Positions 7,312 to 64,000 of a stretch of DNA of 64,000 bases are shown here, piece by piece. The stretch lies in the sequence record OP114733; one strand, written 5' to 3'. Numbering within the stretch: the first letter of the stretch is position 1; every line of letters begins with the position of its first letter. The notes under the pieces were generated by a model that saw only the letters and a program-made list of their open reading frames with translations, was not told the origin of the DNA and did not search any database. The position numbers were made by a program, and so were the translations under genes. This DNA is from Escherichia phage vB_EcoM-pEB20.

Positions 7312-7804
7312 GTTTTTGACTAGCGAAATGAAGGTTAAGATCGCTGATACTGCTCGGTACTCGTTGAAACAAGATCCAGGTCAAATAAAAGAAGACGTTG
7401 TTCGACGTTGTAAGGTCGCAGTCTTTGCAGAGTATGTAGTAGCAAATTGGCTAGACGGATATGTTAATAAAGGTAATGAAGACGTAGAAGACCCGTACAC
7501 GTATGCATGGGACGTTTTAGCTCATCCTAAGTACTGTGGTCTACGCGTAGAAGTAAAGACCCATCAGATGGATTCGAAATGGATTTCGGTTACCACAGGA
7601 TACGGTGGTGATTATCCGGGTGGTAATGGAATCAATATAGGGCCCTTCTTGAATCATCGAGTCGCAGATTGCATTATTATATTAGATGTCAAAGAAACCT
7701 CACCTGACGTCTTCTCTTATTCTATAAAGTTCGTGGGAGATCATGAAGACCTAAAGAAAATCGTCCGCAAGAGCAACTACAACGGGTGGTATCTTCATCT
7801 TTAA
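7247..7804 (+). CDS. denB: endonuclease IV (denB)
   Basis: Conserved core EMKVKIADTARYSLKQDPGQIKEDVVRRC...NYNGWYLHL matches recalled T4 EndoIV; start placed at ATG 7247 (AGAGG RBS 5 nt upstream) giving 185 aa, the T4 length; ORF track begins at 7151. Confidence 0.75.
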   Translation: MVKTNLGLLRLKSLPTFILSNEFLTSEMKVKIADTARYSLKQDPGQIKEDVVRRCKVAVFAEYVVANWLDGYVNKGNEDVEDPYTYAWDVLAHPKYCGLRVEVKTHQMDSKWISVTTGYGGDYPGGNGINIGPFLNHRVADCIIILDVKETSPDVFSYSIKFVGDHEDLKKIVRKSNYNGWYLHL

Positions 7805-7816
7805 TTTCATAAAAGT

Positions 7817-7846
7817 GTTTACAACTAAGTAGGACTATGATATAGT
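7817..7846 (+). promoter_or_regulatory. early sigma70-type promoter (GTTTAC-N18-TATAGT)
   Basis: T4 early promoter consensus; 7-bp inverted repeat AGGACTA/TAGTCCT (7831-7837 / 7846-7852) brackets the -10. Confidence 0.6.
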
Positions 7847-7872
7847 AGTCCTATCTAAAAGAGGATAACATC

Positions 7873-8136
7873 ATGAAATTTAAATTTTTCTACGCAAAAC
7901 ATAAAGTAACAGGCGAATTTGTTTCAATGTACAACACCGCAGATGACGAAGGGATGATTTATACCCATTTGGGACTATCTCATTGGGACTCAGACGTGCC
8001 TTATATGTCATCTGAAGCCGAAATAACTCGTTTAGTTAATGGACATATGAACGACCATTTTGGTGTTATTCTTTCTAAAGACCTTAAAGAGGTTATCAAC
8101 AAAGGATATATGGAACTCGCGGAAGTTGAGATATGA
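7873..8136 (+). CDS. hypothetical protein (87 aa)
   Basis: ORF with AGAGGA RBS, preceded by early promoter at 7817-7846. Confidence 0.55.
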   Translation: MKFKFFYAKHKVTGEFVSMYNTADDEGMIYTHLGLSHWDSDVPYMSSEAEITRLVNGHMNDHFGVILSKDLKEVINKGYMELAEVEI

Positions 8137-8328: not shown

Positions 8329-8358
8329 GTTTACATCACGGTAGGATTATGGTATAGT
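8329..8358 (+). promoter_or_regulatory. early promoter (GTTTAC-N18-TATAGT)
   Basis: consensus match; inverted repeat GTAGGA/TCCTAC flanks the -10. Confidence 0.6.
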
Positions 8359-8386
8359 AGTCCTACTGAAACATGAGGAACACAAA

Positions 8387-8589: not shown

Positions 8590-8619
8590 TTGTACAAACT
8601 CTTGAGAGCAGAGTATAAT
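8590..8619 (+). promoter_or_regulatory. early promoter upstream of ndd (TTGTAC-N18-TATAAT)
   Basis: consensus match; 8-bp inverted repeat TGAGAGCA/TGCTCTCA (8603-8610 / 8620-8627) brackets the -10. Confidence 0.6.
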
Positions 8620-8663
8620 GCTCTCATGGATTACAAAAACATTAATCAATTGAGGAAATTAGC

Positions 8664-10779: not shown

Positions 10780-10855
10780 GTGCCCTAGCCTTAGGATTTC
10801 TCGGTGCAATAGCTGCACTAGTGATTTGGCTGTATTTGTTGGACAAACATGATTA

Positions 10856-10875
10856 GGGAGCTTCGGCTCCCTTTT
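10856..10875 (+). terminator. intrinsic terminator GGGAGCTTCGGCTCCC + T4 after gene 52
   Basis: GC stem, UUCG loop, T-run. Confidence 0.75.
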
Positions 10876-10896
10876 GTGCATTTTTCTCACAAAACA

Positions 10897-10925
10897 GTTT
10901 ACATGTGCTTCAAACATGATATTAT
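10897..10925 (+). promoter_or_regulatory. early/middle promoter (GTTTAC-N17-TATTAT with embedded TGCTTCA MotA-like box)
   Basis: consensus match; near-identical copy at 11219-11247. Confidence 0.6.
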
Positions 10926-10970
10926 AGACCTATCAAAACAAAACAACCAAATTGGAGAAATAAAATGTCT
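10897..10970 (+). repeat. promoter/leader cassette, copy 1 of 2
   Basis: about 90 percent identical to 11219-11290 including TGCTTCAAACATGATATTATAGACCTATCAAAACAAA and GGAGAAATAAAATGTCTAAA. Confidence 0.8.
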
Positions 10971-11180
10971 AAAATGAAATTAACCCAAAACACAACTACT
11001 CGTTTCGGTAAAGTTAAACCTGGTATGAATGCTCCCCGTAAAGCACTTGTTGAAGAATTAAATTTCTTAGAAGTTGAAATCAATTCTTTAGTGGTTCGCG
11101 GTTCAAATGGTCATCATTTAGAAAAGCTTCGTTCTAAAAAGGCAAAACTTATTGGCCTTATTAAAGAAATGAGTTTGTAA
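10965..11180 (+). CDS. hypothetical basic protein (71 aa), stand-alone module
   Basis: ORF with its own promoter/leader (10897-10964) that duplicates the motA promoter/leader; GGAGAAATAAA-ATG RBS. Confidence 0.55.
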   Translation: MSKMKLTQNTTTRFGKVKPGMNAPRKALVEELNFLEVEINSLVVRGSNGHHLEKLRSKKAKLIGLIKEMSL

Positions 11181-11218
11181 ATTTTACCAGGGCTTTTGGA
11201 AAAAGAGCCCAAAATAAA

Positions 11219-11247
11219 GTTTACTTTTGCTTCAAACATGATATTAT
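11219..11247 (+). promoter_or_regulatory. early/middle promoter of motA (GTTTAC-N17-TATTAT with TGCTTCA box)
   Basis: consensus match; duplicate of 10897-10925. Confidence 0.6.
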
Positions 11248-15274: not shown

Positions 15275-15296
15275 TATAAAAAGGGACCGAAGTCCC
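15275..15296 (-). terminator. hairpin GGGACTTCGGTCCC + T-run (minus strand) between genes 37 and 38
   Basis: UUCG-loop hairpin with T5 on the minus strand. Confidence 0.6.
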
Positions 15297-15302
15297 TTCT
15301 CC

Positions 15303-19191: not shown

Positions 19192-19216
19192 CAAAAATGG
19201 GAGACCGAAGTCTCCC
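19191..19216 (-). terminator. hairpin GGGAGACTTCGGTCTCCC + T-run (minus strand) after gene 35
   Basis: 8-bp stem, UUCG loop, followed on minus strand by ATTTTTG. Confidence 0.65.
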
Positions 19217-19221
19217 AAAAT

Positions 19222-27517: not shown

Positions 27518-27539
27518 GGGAGACTTCGGTCTCCCTTTT
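27518..27539 (+). terminator. intrinsic terminator GGGAGACTTCGGTCTCCC + T4 after gene 32
   Basis: 7-bp stem, UUCG loop, T-run. Confidence 0.8.
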
Positions 27540-27565
27540 GAGTATCTGTAAATTGCCAAAAAGTT

Positions 27566-27594
27566 GTTTACTTCTTCCCTAGATGTGATATTAT
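27566..27594 (+). promoter_or_regulatory. early promoter (GTTTAC-N17-TATTAT)
   Basis: consensus match; leader ATCAACAACATGAGGAAA shared with promoter at 49708. Confidence 0.6.
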
Positions 27595-27624
27595 AGTTCC
27601 TATCAACAACATGAGGAAATCAAA

Positions 27625-28017
27625 ATGGAAATCGGAAAATCTTATATCATTAACCCTTTATTTAAAGACGACTTTGTTCAAGAAGCACCACATAATAACG
27701 CTAAGATGTTAAAATTGATTGAACTCCATGGGCCTAGTTTTGTTGTAAACGGAATGGAACCTGATTATGATGACGATACGCCAAACGTAGTAAGTGTAAC
27801 TATGGAAGACGGTACTGTATGTTCTGCCGGTGGTGAAATTGAAACTTATTTTGAGATTTATCCTGACGAGTTCAAATACTTTACTGAGGTAGATTTAGTA
27901 AAGCCTCAATCTACTAACAAAGGTATAGCTTTAGGTGTAACAAAAATCCATTGTATCGTAGATGAAACCAACGTCGACGAAATCATCAAACTTTTGCAAA
28001 AAACTTTTAAAAAGTAG
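27625..28017 (+). CDS. hypothetical protein (130 aa), frd.x position
   Basis: ORF with GAGGAAA RBS and its own early promoter. Confidence 0.55.
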   Translation: MEIGKSYIINPLFKDDFVQEAPHNNAKMLKLIELHGPSFVVNGMEPDYDDDTPNVVSVTMEDGTVCSAGGEIETYFEIYPDEFKYFTEVDLVKPQSTNKGIALGVTKIHCIVDETNVDEIIKLLQKTFKK

Positions 28018-28045
28018 TTTATAACAAGATAGGGCTACTATAACA
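28017..28045 (+). promoter_or_regulatory. early promoter (GTTTAT-N16/17-TATAAC)
   Basis: consensus-like; perfect 10-bp inverted repeat GATAGGGCTA/TAGCCCTATC (28028-28037 / 28046-28055) brackets the -10. Confidence 0.5.
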
Positions 28046-28078
28046 TAGCCCTATCAAATAAAAGTGAAGGAGAATAAA

Positions 28079-34043: not shown

Positions 34044-34072
34044 TTTACATACCACAAGGATTGTGGTACAAT
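34043..34072 (+). promoter_or_regulatory. early promoter of rnlA (GTTTAC-N18-TACAAT)
   Basis: consensus match; 7-bp inverted repeat ACCACAA/TTGTGGT inside spacer. Confidence 0.55.
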
Positions 34073-35225: not shown

Positions 35226-35255
35226 GTTTACAAACACCAAGGAAGGTGTTACTAT
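35226..35255 (+). promoter_or_regulatory. early promoter of alc (GTTTAC-N18-TACTAT)
   Basis: consensus match; inverted repeat AACACC/GGTGTT inside spacer. Confidence 0.55.
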
Positions 35256-36632: not shown

Positions 36633-36662
36633 TTTACAAACTCTCGGGAGCAGAGTATAATG
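36633..36662 (+). promoter_or_regulatory. early promoter (GTTTAC-N18-TATAAT)
   Basis: consensus match; homologous to promoter at 8590 with compensatory change in stem. Confidence 0.6.
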
Positions 36663-36694
36663 CTCCTATGGATAATAAAATTGAGGAAATCTAA

Positions 36695-36993
36695 ATGAAA
36701 ACATTGTTAGAGAATTACATCAAACTATCTGATAAGTATTCTGAAATGCTCCATGCGGAAGACCGAGAAGAATATGATATGGATTTGGCTAAAGAATTGG
36801 ATGCCGCTGGTAAAGCTCTTCGTAAAGCTGCCAAAGAAAAGGGAATGGATATTCCGCAGCTAAAAAGTCATCTGTATAAATTTAACTCTTCAAATATTAG
36901 CAGATATTCTAATAACAAATCATATGCAGAACAATGTAAAGGACGGCGAGAGCATAACATTCGTATTCTTGAAACTTTCTTAGGAATAAAATA

Positions 36994-36994
<1 letters not shown>
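36695..36994 (+). CDS. hypothetical protein (99 aa)
   Basis: ORF with GAGGAAA RBS and its own early promoter. Confidence 0.55.
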
Positions 36995-38763: not shown

Positions 38764-38793
38764 GTTTACAACATGGTGGAGTTGTGATACTAT
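38764..38793 (+). promoter_or_regulatory. early promoter (GTTTAC-N18-TACTAT)
   Basis: consensus match; inverted repeat GGTGGAGTT/AACTCTACC brackets the -10. Confidence 0.55.
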
Positions 38794-38821
38794 AACTCTA
38801 CCAACAAATGAGGAAATAGAA

Positions 38822-39058: not shown

Positions 39059-39178
39059 TGAGAGCTATCTCATTACTATCGAGAATGGTCATAAATCTGA
39101 GCACTACCAACTTAGCCTGTCTAATCCGGTTAAAGGTATTGTTGAATCAGAATCTGTTTATATCTCCTAAGGATTGTT

Positions 39179-40171
39179 ATGTTACCTGTCGTCGGAAAAC
39201 TTATTTCTCCAAAAGAACTGGCTGAGATTATTCCTTTGTCGGAAGCTTACGCATCACAAGTGGCTTCTCATCGCGAACAAGTTAATTCGATTATGAATGG
39301 TGAAGACCCACGCAAACTTATTGTTGTAGGTCCTTGTTCAATTCATGACCCTATTGCTGCTGTTGAATACGGCAAACGTCTGGCTGAACTTCAAACTCGT
39401 CTTCCTAATGTTCTGTTAGTGATGCGCGTTTATTTTGAAAAGCCTCGAACTACCGTAGGTTGGAAAGGTCTTGTAAATGATCCATATCTTGACGGAAGTT
39501 TTGATATGAACCACGGTCTTATAGTTGCACGAACATTGTGTCGTAAACTTCTACGTATGGGACTTCCATTAGCAACTGAAGTATTAGACCCATTCACGAT
39601 TAAGTATCTTTCTGGTATTTTCTCATGGGTTGCTATTGGCGCCCGTACGACTGAAAGTCAGACACATCGTGAAATTGCTTCAGGTCTACCGATGTGCGTA
39701 GGCTTCAAGAACGCAACCAATGGTTCTATTAAAGTAGCTACAGACGCGATGTATAGTGCCGCCTGGCCTCATCGGTATATGGGTATGGACGTCGATGGTA
39801 CTGTAGGCATTGTTGAAGCTGAAGGTAATCAGAATACGCATATCGTATTGCGTGGCGGGACCAACGGCCCGAACTATCATTCTTCTGATATTCAAGAAGC
39901 TTCTAACAAAGCAAGGGCAGTAGGTCTGAATCATTATGTAATGGTTGACTGTAGCCATGCAAACGCTGCCGGGCATTATAGCAATCAAATTGGTATTGGT
40001 AAAAATTTAGCAGCTAATGATTTGGTCAAAGGAATTATGATAGAATCATTCCTACATGAAGGAAATCAAAAAATTTCTGATAATATGTCCTATGGCGTTT
40101 CCGTTACCGATGCGTGCATCAGTTGGGAACAAACTAAAGAGCTGTTAACTTATATTAATAAGGTTCAATAA
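39179..40171 (+). CDS. 3-deoxy-D-arabino-heptulosonate 7-phosphate (DAHP) synthase, AroG-like
   Basis: 330-aa ORF; LIVVGPCSIHDP and RVYFEKPRTTVGWKGLVNDP motifs, IGARTTESQTHRE, HEGNQ, DACISWE all align with recalled E. coli AroG; TAATG-coupled to cd. Confidence 0.88.
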   Translation: MLPVVGKLISPKELAEIIPLSEAYASQVASHREQVNSIMNGEDPRKLIVVGPCSIHDPIAAVEYGKRLAELQTRLPNVLLVMRVYFEKPRTTVGWKGLVNDPYLDGSFDMNHGLIVARTLCRKLLRMGLPLATEVLDPFTIKYLSGIFSWVAIGARTTESQTHREIASGLPMCVGFKNATNGSIKVATDAMYSAAWPHRYMGMDVDGTVGIVEAEGNQNTHIVLRGGTNGPNYHSSDIQEASNKARAVGLNHYVMVDCSHANAAGHYSNQIGIGKNLAANDLVKGIMIESFLHEGNQKISDNMSYGVSVTDACISWEQTKELLTYINKVQ

Positions 40172-42287: not shown

Positions 42288-42292
42288 TTTTA

Positions 42293-42314
42293 GGGAGACT
42301 TCGGTCTCCCTTTT
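42293..42314 (+). terminator. intrinsic terminator GGGAGACTTCGGTCTCCC + T4 (identical to 27518-27539)
   Basis: identical hairpin/T-run sequence reused. Confidence 0.8.
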
Positions 42315-42346
42315 GTGCGTTTAGGGCAGAAAAAGTTTAAAAAGAT

Positions 42347-42375
42347 GTTTACTCTCCTGTAGGATGTGTTACTAT
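42347..42375 (+). promoter_or_regulatory. early promoter (GTTTAC-N17-TACTAT)
   Basis: consensus match; homologous to promoter at 42791. Confidence 0.55.
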
Positions 42376-42790: not shown

Positions 42791-42819
42791 GTTTACTTTG
42801 GTACAGGTTATGTTATTAT
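42791..42819 (+). promoter_or_regulatory. early promoter (GTTTAC-N17-TATTAT)
   Basis: consensus match; 9-bp inverted repeat GGTACAGGT/ACCTGTACC (42800-42808 / 42822-42830). Confidence 0.6.
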
Positions 42820-42860
42820 AGACCTGTACCAACAAACAACTTAAACATCTGGAGAATAAA

Positions 42861-47377: not shown

Positions 47378-47565
47378 TGAAAGCTTATTTAGAAACAGTA
47401 ATTGTCGCTAATAAAGATGGTGGCGATGTTTCCACCTCTTGTTCCCAAATTGTATTAGATTTTCCTAATAACGATTCCTATCATATTTTTATGGACAATT
47501 TTGATAAGTACGAAAAAGGCCCTAATTTTGAAGTTTATCGTACTTTGCTCCCGATTGTGGATTAA
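47377..47565 (+). CDS. hypothetical protein (62 aa)
   Basis: TAATG-coupled to ligase stop; followed by AGAGCCTTCGGGCTCT-T4 terminator. Confidence 0.45.
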   Translation: MKAYLETVIVANKDGGDVSTSCSQIVLDFPNNDSYHIFMDNFDKYEKGPNFEVYRTLLPIVD

Positions 47566-47584
47566 GAGCCTTCGGGCTCTTTTT
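47565..47584 (+). terminator. intrinsic terminator AGAGCCTTCGGGCTCT + T4 before alt
   Basis: GC stem, UUCG loop, T-run. Confidence 0.7.
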
Positions 47585-49708: not shown

Positions 49709-49737
49709 TTTACAAACACATGGATGTGTGATACTAT
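49708..49737 (+). promoter_or_regulatory. early promoter (GTTTAC-N18-TACTAT)
   Basis: consensus match; leader shared with 27566 promoter. Confidence 0.55.
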
Positions 49738-49766
49738 CATCCCATCAACAACATGAGGAAAACGTT

Positions 49767-50060: not shown

Positions 50061-50069
50061 ACCCCTAAA

Positions 50070-50091
50070 GGGAGACGTTGTCTCCCTTTTT
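50070..50091. terminator. bidirectional hairpin GGGAGACGTTGTCTCCC + T5 between convergent + strand ORF and gene 54
   Basis: stem-loop with T-run on + strand; lies between convergent transcription units. Confidence 0.6.
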
Positions 50092-58624: not shown

Positions 58625-58649
58625 TTTTATCTCCTAAGGGCCGAAGCCC

Positions 58650-60164
58650 TTATAAATTAATTGTTTTCATTACATAGTTAAATTTCTCATCAGCGTAACG
58701 TTGGATACGATCAATACCGTGTTTTAACAAGTAATTAAGATGAGTATACTTCTTTTTAGTATTTAATGATTTAGGTTTTACACCTGCGTCATCTATGAGA
58801 TCCCAAACTGTAGCAACAGATTTAGAACCATGCTTGCGAAGCACACGACCTACGGTTTGAAGTACGATAATTTTTGATTTAACACCATGGGCAAAAATAA
58901 CATGATGAAGATTCTTGACTGAAATACCAGTAGAGAATACTCCATATGATGCGACAATAATAATGCCTTTACCATTTTCTGCCATGACTTTAAGCGCATT
59001 ACGTGTTTCAGTATCAACTTCACCTGATACGTAATAAACTTTTTCGTATCCAAGCTCTTTAATAGCTTCAAATATTTCTTTACCGTGTGTAACGTGTTTA
59101 AACATTACAAAGGCGTTCTCGTCTTTCTTAGCCAATTTTACTGAAAGTTGAGCAATCCACTTTGTACGTCGTTTTAGTCCTGTAATAATTTTAACTTCTT
59201 CTTGGTATGTTTTACCTTTTAATTTGGTGGCGAATTCGTCTGGATAACGAAGGAAAATACTATTAATCTTAAGCTCAGTTACCTGTCCATCTTCCATTAA
59301 TTTAGACGTGCTAACAGGACGGAAGATTTCGCCGAACATACCTACGTACTGCATTACATTGGCTTTTCCGTCTCTTAATGAGCCAGATAAACCGAATTTA
59401 AACATACAATTATTTAATCCTGCGATGATTGAAGAAATACTTTTGCCTGTTGCTAAGTGGCATTCATCGTTCATCATCATACCGAACTGAGAGAACCATT
59501 CTTTAGGCTGCTTAACTACCGTTTGCCATGTGCCAACAATAATTGGAGCGTCGTTTTTAGCTCTGTCTGCTTTATCAGCGCCACCGCCAATTTTCTTAAT
59601 CATCGAATGACTAAACAAGCGATAATCAACAAAATCGTTAGCCATTTGGGTTGTCAATGCTGTTGTAGGGACGATAATGAGAATTTTACCTTCATAGTTC
59701 TCTAGATAATACCGAGCTAAAAGTGCTTGGATTAGTGATTTACCTGCTGATGTCGGAAGGTTTAAAATTCGACGACGATTAACTAGTCCTTCATATACCG
59801 CGTCTTTTTGATACCAATGTGGTTCGATTTTGGCATTGCCAGAATAAATTTCTTGTTTAGAAAGCCATGCGTCAAAATCTTCCCTGGTAAGGTCTTCGGT
59901 CTCAAAGATTTTAGGGTCAATCCATACAGAATAACTCATATTGTTACAGAACTTTTTTATTTGTCCTACAAGTCCATATGGTAACAAACGGTTGTAATCT
60001 AAAAGTCGAATTCTACCATCCCATTGCCCGTAGCGATATTTTGGGTTAAATTTATACCCGTCAGCTTCAAAGCTAAAAAAGTCACGAAGTTCGTAAAACG
60101 TACTTTCGTCGCATTCAATGCGCACGTGACTAAAATCATAAAAATGTACTTTAATGTCAGTCAT
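58650..60164 (-). CDS. uvsW: UvsW SF2 DNA/RNA helicase
   Basis: 504-aa ORF; Walker A TSAGKS and DECH box (MMNDECHLATG). Confidence 0.9.
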   Translation of the reverse strand: MTDIKVHFYDFSHVRIECDESTFYELRDFFSFEADGYKFNPKYRYGQWDGRIRLLDYNRLLPYGLVGQIKKFCNNMSYSVWIDPKIFETEDLTREDFDAWLSKQEIYSGNAKIEPHWYQKDAVYEGLVNRRRILNLPTSAGKSLIQALLARYYLENYEGKILIIVPTTALTTQMANDFVDYRLFSHSMIKKIGGGADKADRAKNDAPIIVGTWQTVVKQPKEWFSQFGMMMNDECHLATGKSISSIIAGLNNCMFKFGLSGSLRDGKANVMQYVGMFGEIFRPVSTSKLMEDGQVTELKINSIFLRYPDEFATKLKGKTYQEEVKIITGLKRRTKWIAQLSVKLAKKDENAFVMFKHVTHGKEIFEAIKELGYEKVYYVSGEVDTETRNALKVMAENGKGIIIVASYGVFSTGISVKNLHHVIFAHGVKSKIIVLQTVGRVLRKHGSKSVATVWDLIDDAGVKPKSLNTKKKYTHLNYLLKHGIDRIQRYADEKFNYVMKTINL

Positions 60165-62311: not shown

Positions 62312-62317
62312 TCGTAA

Positions 62318-62340
62318 GGGGCCGAAGCCCCTTTCTTCGT
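62318..62340 (+). terminator. hairpin GGGGCCGAAGCCCC + T-rich tract after hoc
   Basis: GC stem with GAAG loop followed by TTTCTTCGTTTTT. Confidence 0.6.
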
Positions 62341-63974: not shown

Positions 63975-63982
63975 CGAAAAAA

Positions 63983-63998
63983 GGGACCTTACGGTCCC
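63983..63998 (+). terminator. hairpin GGGACCTTACGGTCCC after rnlB (window ends before any T-run)
   Basis: GC stem with UUACG loop; truncated by window end. Confidence 0.45.
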
Positions 63999-64000
63999 TT

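Follow-up and report, generated by a model that had tools for sequence, protein, structure and literature searches.

Background

Promoter-early stem-loop (PeSL) cassettes have been described in the phages RB49/phi1 (Arbiol et al. 2010, PMC2839356), T4/PST and KVP40/nt-1 (Comeau et al. 2014, PMC4122927), and had been proposed as gene-shuffling engines. The stem-loop lies mostly between the -35 and -10 elements or overlaps the -10; one RB49-type stem-loop reduced lacZ expression about as far as rrnB T1, and a terminator or attenuator role was assigned from this one reporter assay (PMC2839356). Mini-circles between PeSLs were shown for RB49/phi1, and the authors expected PeSLs in all T4-like phages (PMC2839356). 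RB69 has no occurrence in the 2010 paper, a literature search gave no description of RB69 PeSLs, and a review of T4 transcription contains no description of inverted repeats around the -10. The present analysis concerns inverted repeats of this kind in a 64,000-nucleotide stretch of the genome of Escherichia phage vB_EcoM-pEB20 (sequence record OP114733; hereafter the window), which belongs to a Mosigvirus, an RB69-like, T4-type myovirus whose closest matches (~97% identity) are phi25-307, SF, moha and mogra. The early-gene strand of the window is the plus strand.

Seven cassettes in the window carry a hairpin around the -10 of an early promoter. These hairpins are real, non-random and conserved, and the cassettes are of the PeSL type, an element kind already known rather than a new one. 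To the reading that the hairpin of such a cassette is an RNA 3' element of the upstream cistron, packed into the promoter of the next gene, roughly an even chance is given here. The role of the PeSL stem-loop had rested on a single reporter assay, and the comparative patterns of the hairpins offer a testable alternative to the gene-shuffling role.

Structure of the embedded hairpins and comparison with described PeSLs

Each of the seven inverted repeats was confirmed at the positions given in an initial annotation of the sequence or no more than 2 nt away, with stems of 7-12 bp and loops of 8-13 nt. The layout is the same in all seven: the 5' arm lies in the promoter spacer, the TGn/-10 lies in the loop, and the 3' arm extends from the -10 to approximately +1, which places the repeat upstream of the expected transcription start, as had been stated. 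Six of the seven promoters read TTTACN or TGTACA, N16-17, TAnnnT, mostly with TGn, and the site at 28017 is the degenerate exception. A spacing of GTTTAC-N17, as first given, was corrected to GTTTAC-N18-TAnnnT, which equals TTTACA-N17. RNA folding of the seven hairpins gave free energies (dG) of -12.2 to -17.9 kcal/mol with z-scores of -2.3 to -7.8, and for six of them 0 of 200 shuffles reached equal fold stability. The intergenic gap at the seven cassettes is 60-76 nt, the upstream stop codon lies 0-14 nt ahead of the -35, and a Shine-Dalgarno sequence and the ATG of the next gene are found on the 3' side.

This composition matches the published definition of a PeSL, as the initial annotation had proposed: an A/T-rich upstream region, a sigma-70-type early promoter with its boxes about 17 bp apart, a stem-loop, a Shine-Dalgarno sequence and a start codon follow each other in the same order. 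Like the described PeSLs, the window cassettes are intergenic, come right after the upstream stop codon and are present in several copies per genome, some of them paralogous, and the published subclasses comprise stem-loops placed between the two boxes, across the -35 or the -10, upstream of the promoter, or downstream of it. The contexts of the window cassettes, e.g. aaaaagtaGTTTAT and gtaatttaattGTTTAC, also agree with one further published PeSL criterion. Other promoters of the window correspond to other PeSL subclasses, namely the spacer type (34044 and 35227) and the upstream type (10898, 11220, 27567 and 42348), and two indels in the window's lineage are bounded by promoter cassettes. 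The differences are as follows. The stems of an RB49-like genome are near-identical G/C runs (AGGGGATC/GATCCCCT) inside the spacer, whereas most arms in the window are particular to their site and extend across the -10; the seven window sites are without excess at synteny breakpoints; and the terminator and promoter activities of the window cassettes are predicted ones.

Enrichment over chance

On the basis of motif and gene context, 19 T4-type early-promoter-like sites were chosen in the window. Seven of them are bracketed by a stem of 7 bp or longer, compared with 0.73 expected from shuffles of the flanks (0 of 5000 shuffles reached 7), and five by one of 9 bp or longer, compared with 0.06 expected. 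Among other -10-like hexamers on the same strand (n=353), 5.4% had a stem of 7 bp or longer and 0% one of 9 bp, and no bracketing hairpin was found at any of 10 late-promoter boxes (TATAAATA). A generic sigma-70 scan of the window, which is uninformative for T4-type promoters, was not enriched (58 vs. 52 in shuffles). No Rfam family matched anywhere in the 64-kb window at the gathering threshold.

Conservation of pairing across frd.2|frd.1 orthologues

Nineteen orthologous cassettes of the frd.2|frd.1 junction were compared: those of the window, mogra, RB69, PhAPEC2 and T4, and 14 distinct IMG/VR sequences with 47-88% identity in the downstream protein. A stem of 7-12 bp around the -10 was found in all 19, each at P<=0.02 when its own flanks were shuffled. 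Their arms represent at least six unrelated sequences (GATAGGGCTA, AGGGTA, AAGGCTAT, GGAGCTAT, GGTGTAAGAT and ATGGGGC), the loops range from 4 to 16 nt, and the centre of symmetry drifts by up to 7 positions (i+j of 45 to 52 in a gapless alignment anchored at the -35). Since the stems stand in different registers, each sequence was tested separately and no single RNAalifold or covariance model was used. The turnover of the arms across orthologues rules out a shared protein half-site, and the drift in register speaks against mechanisms in which the RNA polymerase geometry has to be fixed. Pairing, and not a shared protein-binding sequence, is thus the likely object of selection, which bears out the proposal of selection on structure. 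The accompanying claim that the arms differ at every site holds for most sites; the pairs 7829/8341 and 8603/36646 share arms.

Upstream genes and terminators

A pooled set of 170 unique T4-type cassettes was compiled from the window, from 50-kb stretches of mogra, RB69, T4 and PhAPEC2, and from IMG/VR loci. Embedded stems (>=7 bp) and upstream terminator-like hairpins were mutually exclusive: none of the 170 cassettes had both, 55 had an embedded stem, 34 a terminator and 81 neither (Fisher 3e-7), and the same counts by 75%-identity clusters were 0, 32, 20 and 65 (p=0.0016). A co-directional ORF of at least 50 codons ended within 20 nt of the -35 in 89% of the cassettes with an embedded hairpin (median distance 3 nt), compared with 42% of the hairpin-less cassettes. 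An intended negative-control contrast for the promoter pattern in IMG/VR was left unused, the similarity classifier having put many obvious T4-type cassettes into the 'other' class.

The same division is seen within the window. Promoters 10898, 27567 and 42348 each have a separate UUCG-tetraloop terminator with a U-tract ~40 nt upstream, and none of the three has an embedded hairpin. At the 30.9|30.8 junction (42292..42375, plus strand) the terminator and its U-tract occupy 42292-42311 and the promoter 42348-42375; the 3' motif of this promoter (TACTATAGACTTGTACC) recurs in the 42792 cassette, and the promoter's spacer lacks a complementary arm. The 3' motif TAYTATAGACYTGTACCA is common to the 30.9|30.8 and 30.8|30.7 cassettes. 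In every lineage the copy behind the terminator is without a complementary spacer, and the copy adjoining an ORF has one, for which two different arm solutions, TTGGTACAGGT or TTGGGTGGT, were found. At the 32|frd.2 junction (27518..27594, plus strand) the terminator GGGAGACttcgGTCTCCC followed by TTTT lies at 27518-27535, and promoter 27567-27594, TTTACT-N16-TATTAT, has no embedded hairpin. The paralogous cassettes with upstream hairpins (10855..11247, plus strand) have hairpins at 10855-10872, with a U-tract, and at 11190-11210, without one, ahead of promoters 10898-10925 and 11220-11247, respectively. Promoter 24276, which lies behind opposite-strand tail-fibre genes, also has no embedded hairpin.

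A possible 3' element of the upstream gene

On the reading favoured here, a single stretch of 40-45 bp would contain two signals, one that ends an early transcription unit and one that begins the unit after it. In the DNA the stretch would act as a sigma-70 early promoter, with an A/T-rich upstream region, GTTTAC, TGn and TAnnnT, and the two promoter segments that are unconstrained in sequence, the spacer and the region from the -10 to +1, hold the arms of the hairpin. Judged by the usual 7-nt distance from the -10, the promoter's own transcript would begin at the last bases of the 3' arm, and for this reason the whole hairpin would be present only in sense read-through RNA from the upstream gene. 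There it would lie 0-15 nt past the upstream stop codon, as a 3' element of the upstream cistron that may act as an attenuator or pause, and/or as a barrier to 3'-to-5' exonucleases after cleavage further downstream. Its overlap with the -10 would be a consequence of compaction: the 60-76 nt gap being too short for a separate element, the hairpin would be written into the free segments of the promoter. Both the RNA-level function and the position of the transcription start are inferred. The initial annotation had left open whether the repeat acts in DNA or in read-through RNA; the exclusivity with terminators, the position of the upstream stop codons and the drift in register favour the latter.

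A route to the postulated downstream cleavage may be available at two of the sites. The consensus for strong cleavage by the RegB endoribonuclease is GG*AGRAYARAA (PMC3014915), and the ribosome-binding sites of frd.1 (28065-28078) and 30.7 (42847-42860) read GGAGAATAAAA, an exact match. Cleavage there would leave the hairpin near the new 3' end. This route is not general, because most of the other five sites are of the GAGG type without the consensus.

Two known kinds of hairpin occupy comparable positions. Intrinsic terminators, including those at 27518-27535 and 42292-42311, are likewise stable hairpins just past a stop codon, in the same genomic niche, whereas the embedded hairpins have no U-tract, have loops of 8-13 nt rather than 4, and hold the -10 in an A/T-rich loop. 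REP-type hairpins in E. coli operons are mRNA-stabilising 3' barriers to exonucleases. They too are found between cistrons, downstream of a stop codon and without a U-tract; they are a conserved sequence family, whereas the embedded hairpins conserve only pairing, and a stabilising effect of theirs would be putative.

Folding of the sense strand was favoured over that of the antisense strand by >1 kcal/mol in 25 of the 30 hairpins classed as strong (25 vs. 1) and at 6 of the 7 window sites. This strand asymmetry is suggestive only as evidence for RNA. A tally of G.U against A.C mismatches was also tried as a discriminator between RNA and DNA; it first gave 13 wobble pairs and 0 A.C, failed under stricter criteria (4 wobble, 0 A.C and 3 other), and is likewise no more than suggestive.

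Several points weigh against a 3' element. The hairpin is not obligatory, since 34 of 80 hairpin-less cassettes also adjoin an ORF; gap length alone could partly lie behind the exclusivity with terminators; and the set of cassettes is phylogenetically non-independent and includes chance pattern matches from unrelated phages. The asymmetry in dG is inflated by inner pairs from the conserved TGn/-10 bases, mismatches counted in the arms only were G.T in 3 cases and A.C in 1, and one relative (L069) has two C.A mismatches. None of the seven hairpins is followed on its 3' side on the plus strand by a U-tract, the flanks being atctaaaa, tgaaacat, tggattac, aaataaaa, atggataa, acaaatga and caaacaac, and hence none is a canonical intrinsic terminator; a terminator scan flagged 0 of 7 on the plus strand and only 28028-28055 on the minus strand. 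A literature search for maps of 5' or 3' ends in T4-like phages found none.

If the 3' element were confirmed, two overlapping codes would be accommodated in about 45 bp. This would help phage annotation and engineering, in that an edit to the promoter would also alter the fate of the upstream mRNA.

The frd.2|frd.1 cassette and its inverted loop

In the frd.2|frd.1 cassette of the window (28017..28055, plus strand), the stop codon TAG of frd.2 (28015-28017) overlaps GTTTAT (28017-28022). The hairpin at 28028-28055 is formed by GATAGGGCTA and TAGCCCTATC, a perfect 10-bp stem as first annotated (dG -16.4, z -7.8), and encloses an 8-nt loop at 28038-28045, CTATAACA. The -10 position reads TAACAT (28041-28046) and has no TGn. 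The site had been listed among the GTTTAC-N17-TAtAaT promoters, a description that its degenerate GTTTAT...TAACAT does not sustain. The corresponding cassettes of RB69, mogra and PhAPEC2 read GTTTAT-N18-TATAGT or TATAAT, with TGn and the same 10-bp arms, and their loop together with the next T gives TGnTATAGT or TGnTATAAT at the correct spacing. Between unchanged 10-bp arms, the loop of the window, CTATAACA, and that of PhAPEC2, TGTTATAG, are exact reverse complements of each other; the -10 reads TAACAT and the TGn is lost because the loop is inverted relative to that of the relatives. The flip puts TGnTATAGT on the antisense strand, directed into frd.2.

Phage moha has the identical flipped form (100% over 60 nt). 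The phage collection gave ~145 full-length matches, only 2-3 of which can have a flipped loop, and the flip is lacking from about 140 others; in many further genomes it is the opposite strand of the hairpin that matches, as expected for an unflipped loop. Synthetic queries with a flipped loop found no flipped variants in 241 phage records at site 38765 or in 154 at site 7818, and a pattern scan of IMG/VR with the arms held fixed gave only 2 loci. Loop flips as a general phenomenon were rejected on these counts; they occur but are rare, and the flip at 28038-28045 is treated as a derived mutation rather than a programmed switch. That a hairpin-mediated flip serves as a heritable off-switch or direction switch for the promoter is very doubtful. 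Should flips recur at appreciable frequency, they would provide recombinase-free variation of early-gene expression in T4-type phages.

Small spacer flips between short inverted repeats are known from chloroplast genomes, and template switching at quasi-palindromes from T4. The 8-nt loop resembles these inversions in being reverse-complemented between unchanged arms and differs in that the flipped spacer holds the -10, so that the promoter is degraded. The T4 record NC_000866 contains at 133300-133313 the note 'inverted complement of previously reported sequence; corrects the early promoter Pe133295'. These 14 nt are exactly the T4 loop between GGTAGAG and CTCTACC, at the orthologue of window cassette 38765.

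Alternative explanations

A recombination module acting in DNA, in which the cassettes with their hairpins would be portable homology or structure for the excision, insertion and swapping of ORFans, is unlikely on balance. It accords with the duplication of cassettes at distant loci (8591/36633, 28 kb apart; 7818/8330 also match), with the mini-circles reported for RB49/phi1 (PMC2839356), and with the loop inversion at 28038-28045, which would fit intrastrand pairing or template switching in DNA. The ORF at 10965-11180, missing from mogra and RB69, is flanked by paralogous promoter cassettes, and the extra ORF245c of RB69 joins at promoter 27567; both of these indels, however, lie at cassettes without an embedded hairpin. 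Modular shuffling, which the initial annotation had brought up, found no support at the seven sites. Relative to T4, gene-content breakpoints coincided with 3 of the 7 bracketed sites (cassettes 7818, 8330 and 36633 border genes missing from T4) vs. 28 of 59 junctions overall, which is no enrichment, and 0 of 7 sites formed an indel boundary relative to mogra, RB69 or PhAPEC2. The divergent patch near 36633 lies within a gene. The arms are dissimilar between most cassettes, in contrast to the uniform GGGGATC/GATCCCC of the RB49-like genome. The hairpin here lowers rather than raises the homology between cassettes, nor does a recombination function predict exclusivity with upstream terminators.

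The two indels and the patch were also recorded in their own right. The ORF at 10965-11180 (71 aa) is present in the window and in PhAPEC2 and is bounded by the near-identical cassettes 10898 and 11220, each behind a hairpin. The alignment is interrupted at 10973/11210, the subject overlapping there by 85 nt, and the region looks like an excision or insertion between tandem cassettes. ORF245c of RB69, a small frd.3-like gene, joins at window positions 27602-27627, just 3' of promoter 27567, where both edges of the break in the alignment have a copy of one 26-nt stretch. The patch at 36720-36960 has 50-70% identity within a region of 95-100% identity to mogra, RB69 and PhAPEC2. It lies in the middle of gene 36695-36994 and suggests a small gene-conversion or mosaic tract; a mosaic boundary at the 36633 cassette was rejected on account of this position inside the gene.

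Control of the promoter at the DNA level, by which extrusion of a cruciform or hairpin around the -10 would tune promoter opening, is less probable still. Cruciform-regulated synthetic promoters and the hairpin promoters of phage N4 are precedents, at every site the TGn/-10 region, which melts easily, lies at the centre of the repeat, and a bracketing repeat is specific to early promoters, with none at late ones. Alt stimulates some T4 early promoters through determinants that have yet to be identified (PMC2988021), which was also counted in favour of promoter control. A drift in symmetry of up to 7 positions and loops of 4-16 nt are nevertheless hard to fit to a fixed RNA polymerase geometry, and cruciforms are disfavoured by loops of 8-13 nt and by G.T wobbles, which are A.C on the other strand. 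Promoter control explains neither the exclusivity with terminators nor the dependence on an abutting upstream ORF, and the frd.2|frd.1 site of the window keeps its 10-bp stem although its -10 is flipped and its promoter degraded.

A non-adaptive by-product, in which chance quasi-palindromes in A/T-rich flanks are perfected by template-switch mutation, is considered improbable. Template-switch mutation is well known in T4 and would yield products of the kind seen in the loop inversion at 28038-28045; according to the RefSeq note, an earlier report of Pe133295 had its 14-nt loop in inverted complement; and compensatory changes can arise mechanically when one arm templates the other. Such a process does not account for an approximately ten-fold enrichment over shuffles and other -10-like hexamers, for hairpins with different arms in 19 of 19 orthologues across genera, or for the strong dependence on upstream ORFs and terminators, and flips were rare, with none in the 241 and 154 records of the two other sites.

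Translational control of the downstream gene in read-through RNA is very improbable for the window sites. The model is T4 e, soc, 49 and I-TevI, in which the promoter lies within a hairpin that hides the ribosome-binding site of longer transcripts (PMC3014915). The window hairpins share with these the promoter inside the hairpin, the predicted absence of the 5' arm from promoter transcripts and the predicted folding of the read-through RNA. They differ in that their 3' arms stop near +1, at least ~10 nt upstream of the Shine-Dalgarno sequence, and exclude both it and the AUG. When read-through RNA was modelled, the accessibility of the initiation region was 0.45-0.60 for the wild type vs. 0.42-0.64 with a shuffled 5' arm, with no consistent change. 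On both grounds the T4 type of translational-repression hairpin was rejected at the seven sites. Arrangements of this type do exist at T4 early promoters: at those of alc and alt.-3, which are paralogous, the spacer arm CCTCGTGTTGTGT pairs with ACATAACATGAGG, a stretch that includes the Shine-Dalgarno sequence, and at 30.8 TCCTTTG pairs with CAAAGGA. In T4 alc and alt.-3 only the promoter-proximal transcripts would have a free ribosome-binding site.

A palindromic operator through which a dimeric DNA-binding regulator would shut off early promoters, suggested by dyad symmetry overlapping the -10 as is typical of repressor operators, is scarcely credible and was rejected as contradicted by arm diversity, since there is no common half-site, the arms differ between sites (two paralogous pairs apart) and turn over fully between orthologues, and the inter-arm spacing varies from 4 to 16 nt.

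Individual cassettes and other features of the window

The other six cassettes with an embedded hairpin are all on the plus strand, and gene names at the junctions were taken from annotated relatives. The 7818 cassette (7818..7854), between denB and an RB69ORF270c-like gene, has its -35 TTTACA at 7818-7823 and its -10 TATAGT at 7841-7846; it lies between an upstream stop codon ending at 7804 and a downstream ATG at 7873. Its hairpin at 7829-7854, GTAGGACTA/TAGTCCTAT, has 9 bp with one G.U, a perfect 8-bp core (TAGGACTA/TAGTCCTA) and an 8-nt loop (dG -13.2, z -3.6), and there is no sequence difference in RB69 and PhAPEC2. The 8330 cassette (8330..8366), between a small ORF and ndd.1, has TTTACA at 8330-8335, TATAGT at 8353-8358 and a 9-bp hairpin with one U.G at 8341-8366, GTAGGATTA/TAGTCCTAC (dG -16.1, z -5.0); its stem has decayed in PhAPEC2, where 5 bp are left. 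The 8591 cassette (8591..8626), between ndd.1 and ndd, has TGTACA at 8591-8596, TATAAT at 8614-8619 and a perfect 8-bp hairpin at 8603-8626, TGAGAGCA/TGCTCTCA (dG -13.9, z -3.8).

The 36633 cassette (36633..36667), between pseT.1 and an RB69ORF231c-like gene, has TTTACA at 36633-36638, TATAAT at 36656-36661 and a 7-bp hairpin with a terminal G.U at 36646-36667, GGGAGCA/TGCTCCT (dG -12.2, z -2.3). The 38765 cassette (38765..38803), between cd.3 and cd.2, has TTTACA at 38765-38770, TACTAT at 38788-38793 and a 10-bp hairpin with one G.U at 38774-38803, TGGTGGAGTT/AACTCTACCA (dG -16.9, z -5.8); it is the orthologue of T4 early promoter Pe133295, where the arms GGTAGAG/CTCTACC bracket the same -10. 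The 42792 cassette (42792..42832), between 30.8 and 30.7, has TTTACT at 42792-42797, TATTAT at 42814-42819 and a 12-bp hairpin with one U.G at 42798-42832, TTGGTACAGGTT/GACCTGTACCAA (dG -17.9, z -4.5).

Two pairs among these cassettes are paralogous, 7818/8330 and 8591/36633 (hairpins 7829/8341 and 8603/36646). The members of the second pair have ~75 nt in common, and one compensatory change, A-T to G-C, separates their stems. The similar cassette pairs in the window are 7818/8330, 8591/36633, 10898/11220 and 42348/42792, and most stems are otherwise unrelated.

The spacer-type cassette at denA|rnlA (34044..34072, plus strand) has a dG of -8.2, and related CCACAAGGAnGTGG-type spacers occur at 35227 and 49709. 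The hairpins of this class, at 34050-34066, 35233-35250 and 49715-49728, share (A)CCACAAGGAnGTGG(T), with the 3' arm running into the TGn, and the same spacer motif recurs in several T4-like contigs of IMG/VR. Regular G+C-rich hairpins were found on the plus strand at 2375-2392, 10855-10872, 27518-27535, 42292-42311, 47564-47581, 50067-50089 and 63981-64000, and on the minus strand at 15281-15298, 19198-19217, 58635-58652 and 62316-62333. Nearly all have a UUCG tetraloop (cgaa on the other strand), and from their sequence most are read as canonical intrinsic terminators.

A motif YATCAACAA(C/A) occurs ~7-12 nt past many early -10 boxes, independently of the hairpins. Examples are 10929-10940, 27599-27610, 38800-38808 and 49740-49750, at the predicted transcription start, and at hairpin-less promoters the motif contributes a weak 5-bp TGATA...TATCA pairing. 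Finally, a 330-aa gene at 39179-40171, annotated in relatives as DAHP synthase (phospho-2-dehydro-3-deoxyheptonate aldolase), is present in the window, mogra and PhAPEC2 and lacking from RB69 (alignment gap 39073-40168), and may be an auxiliary metabolic gene.

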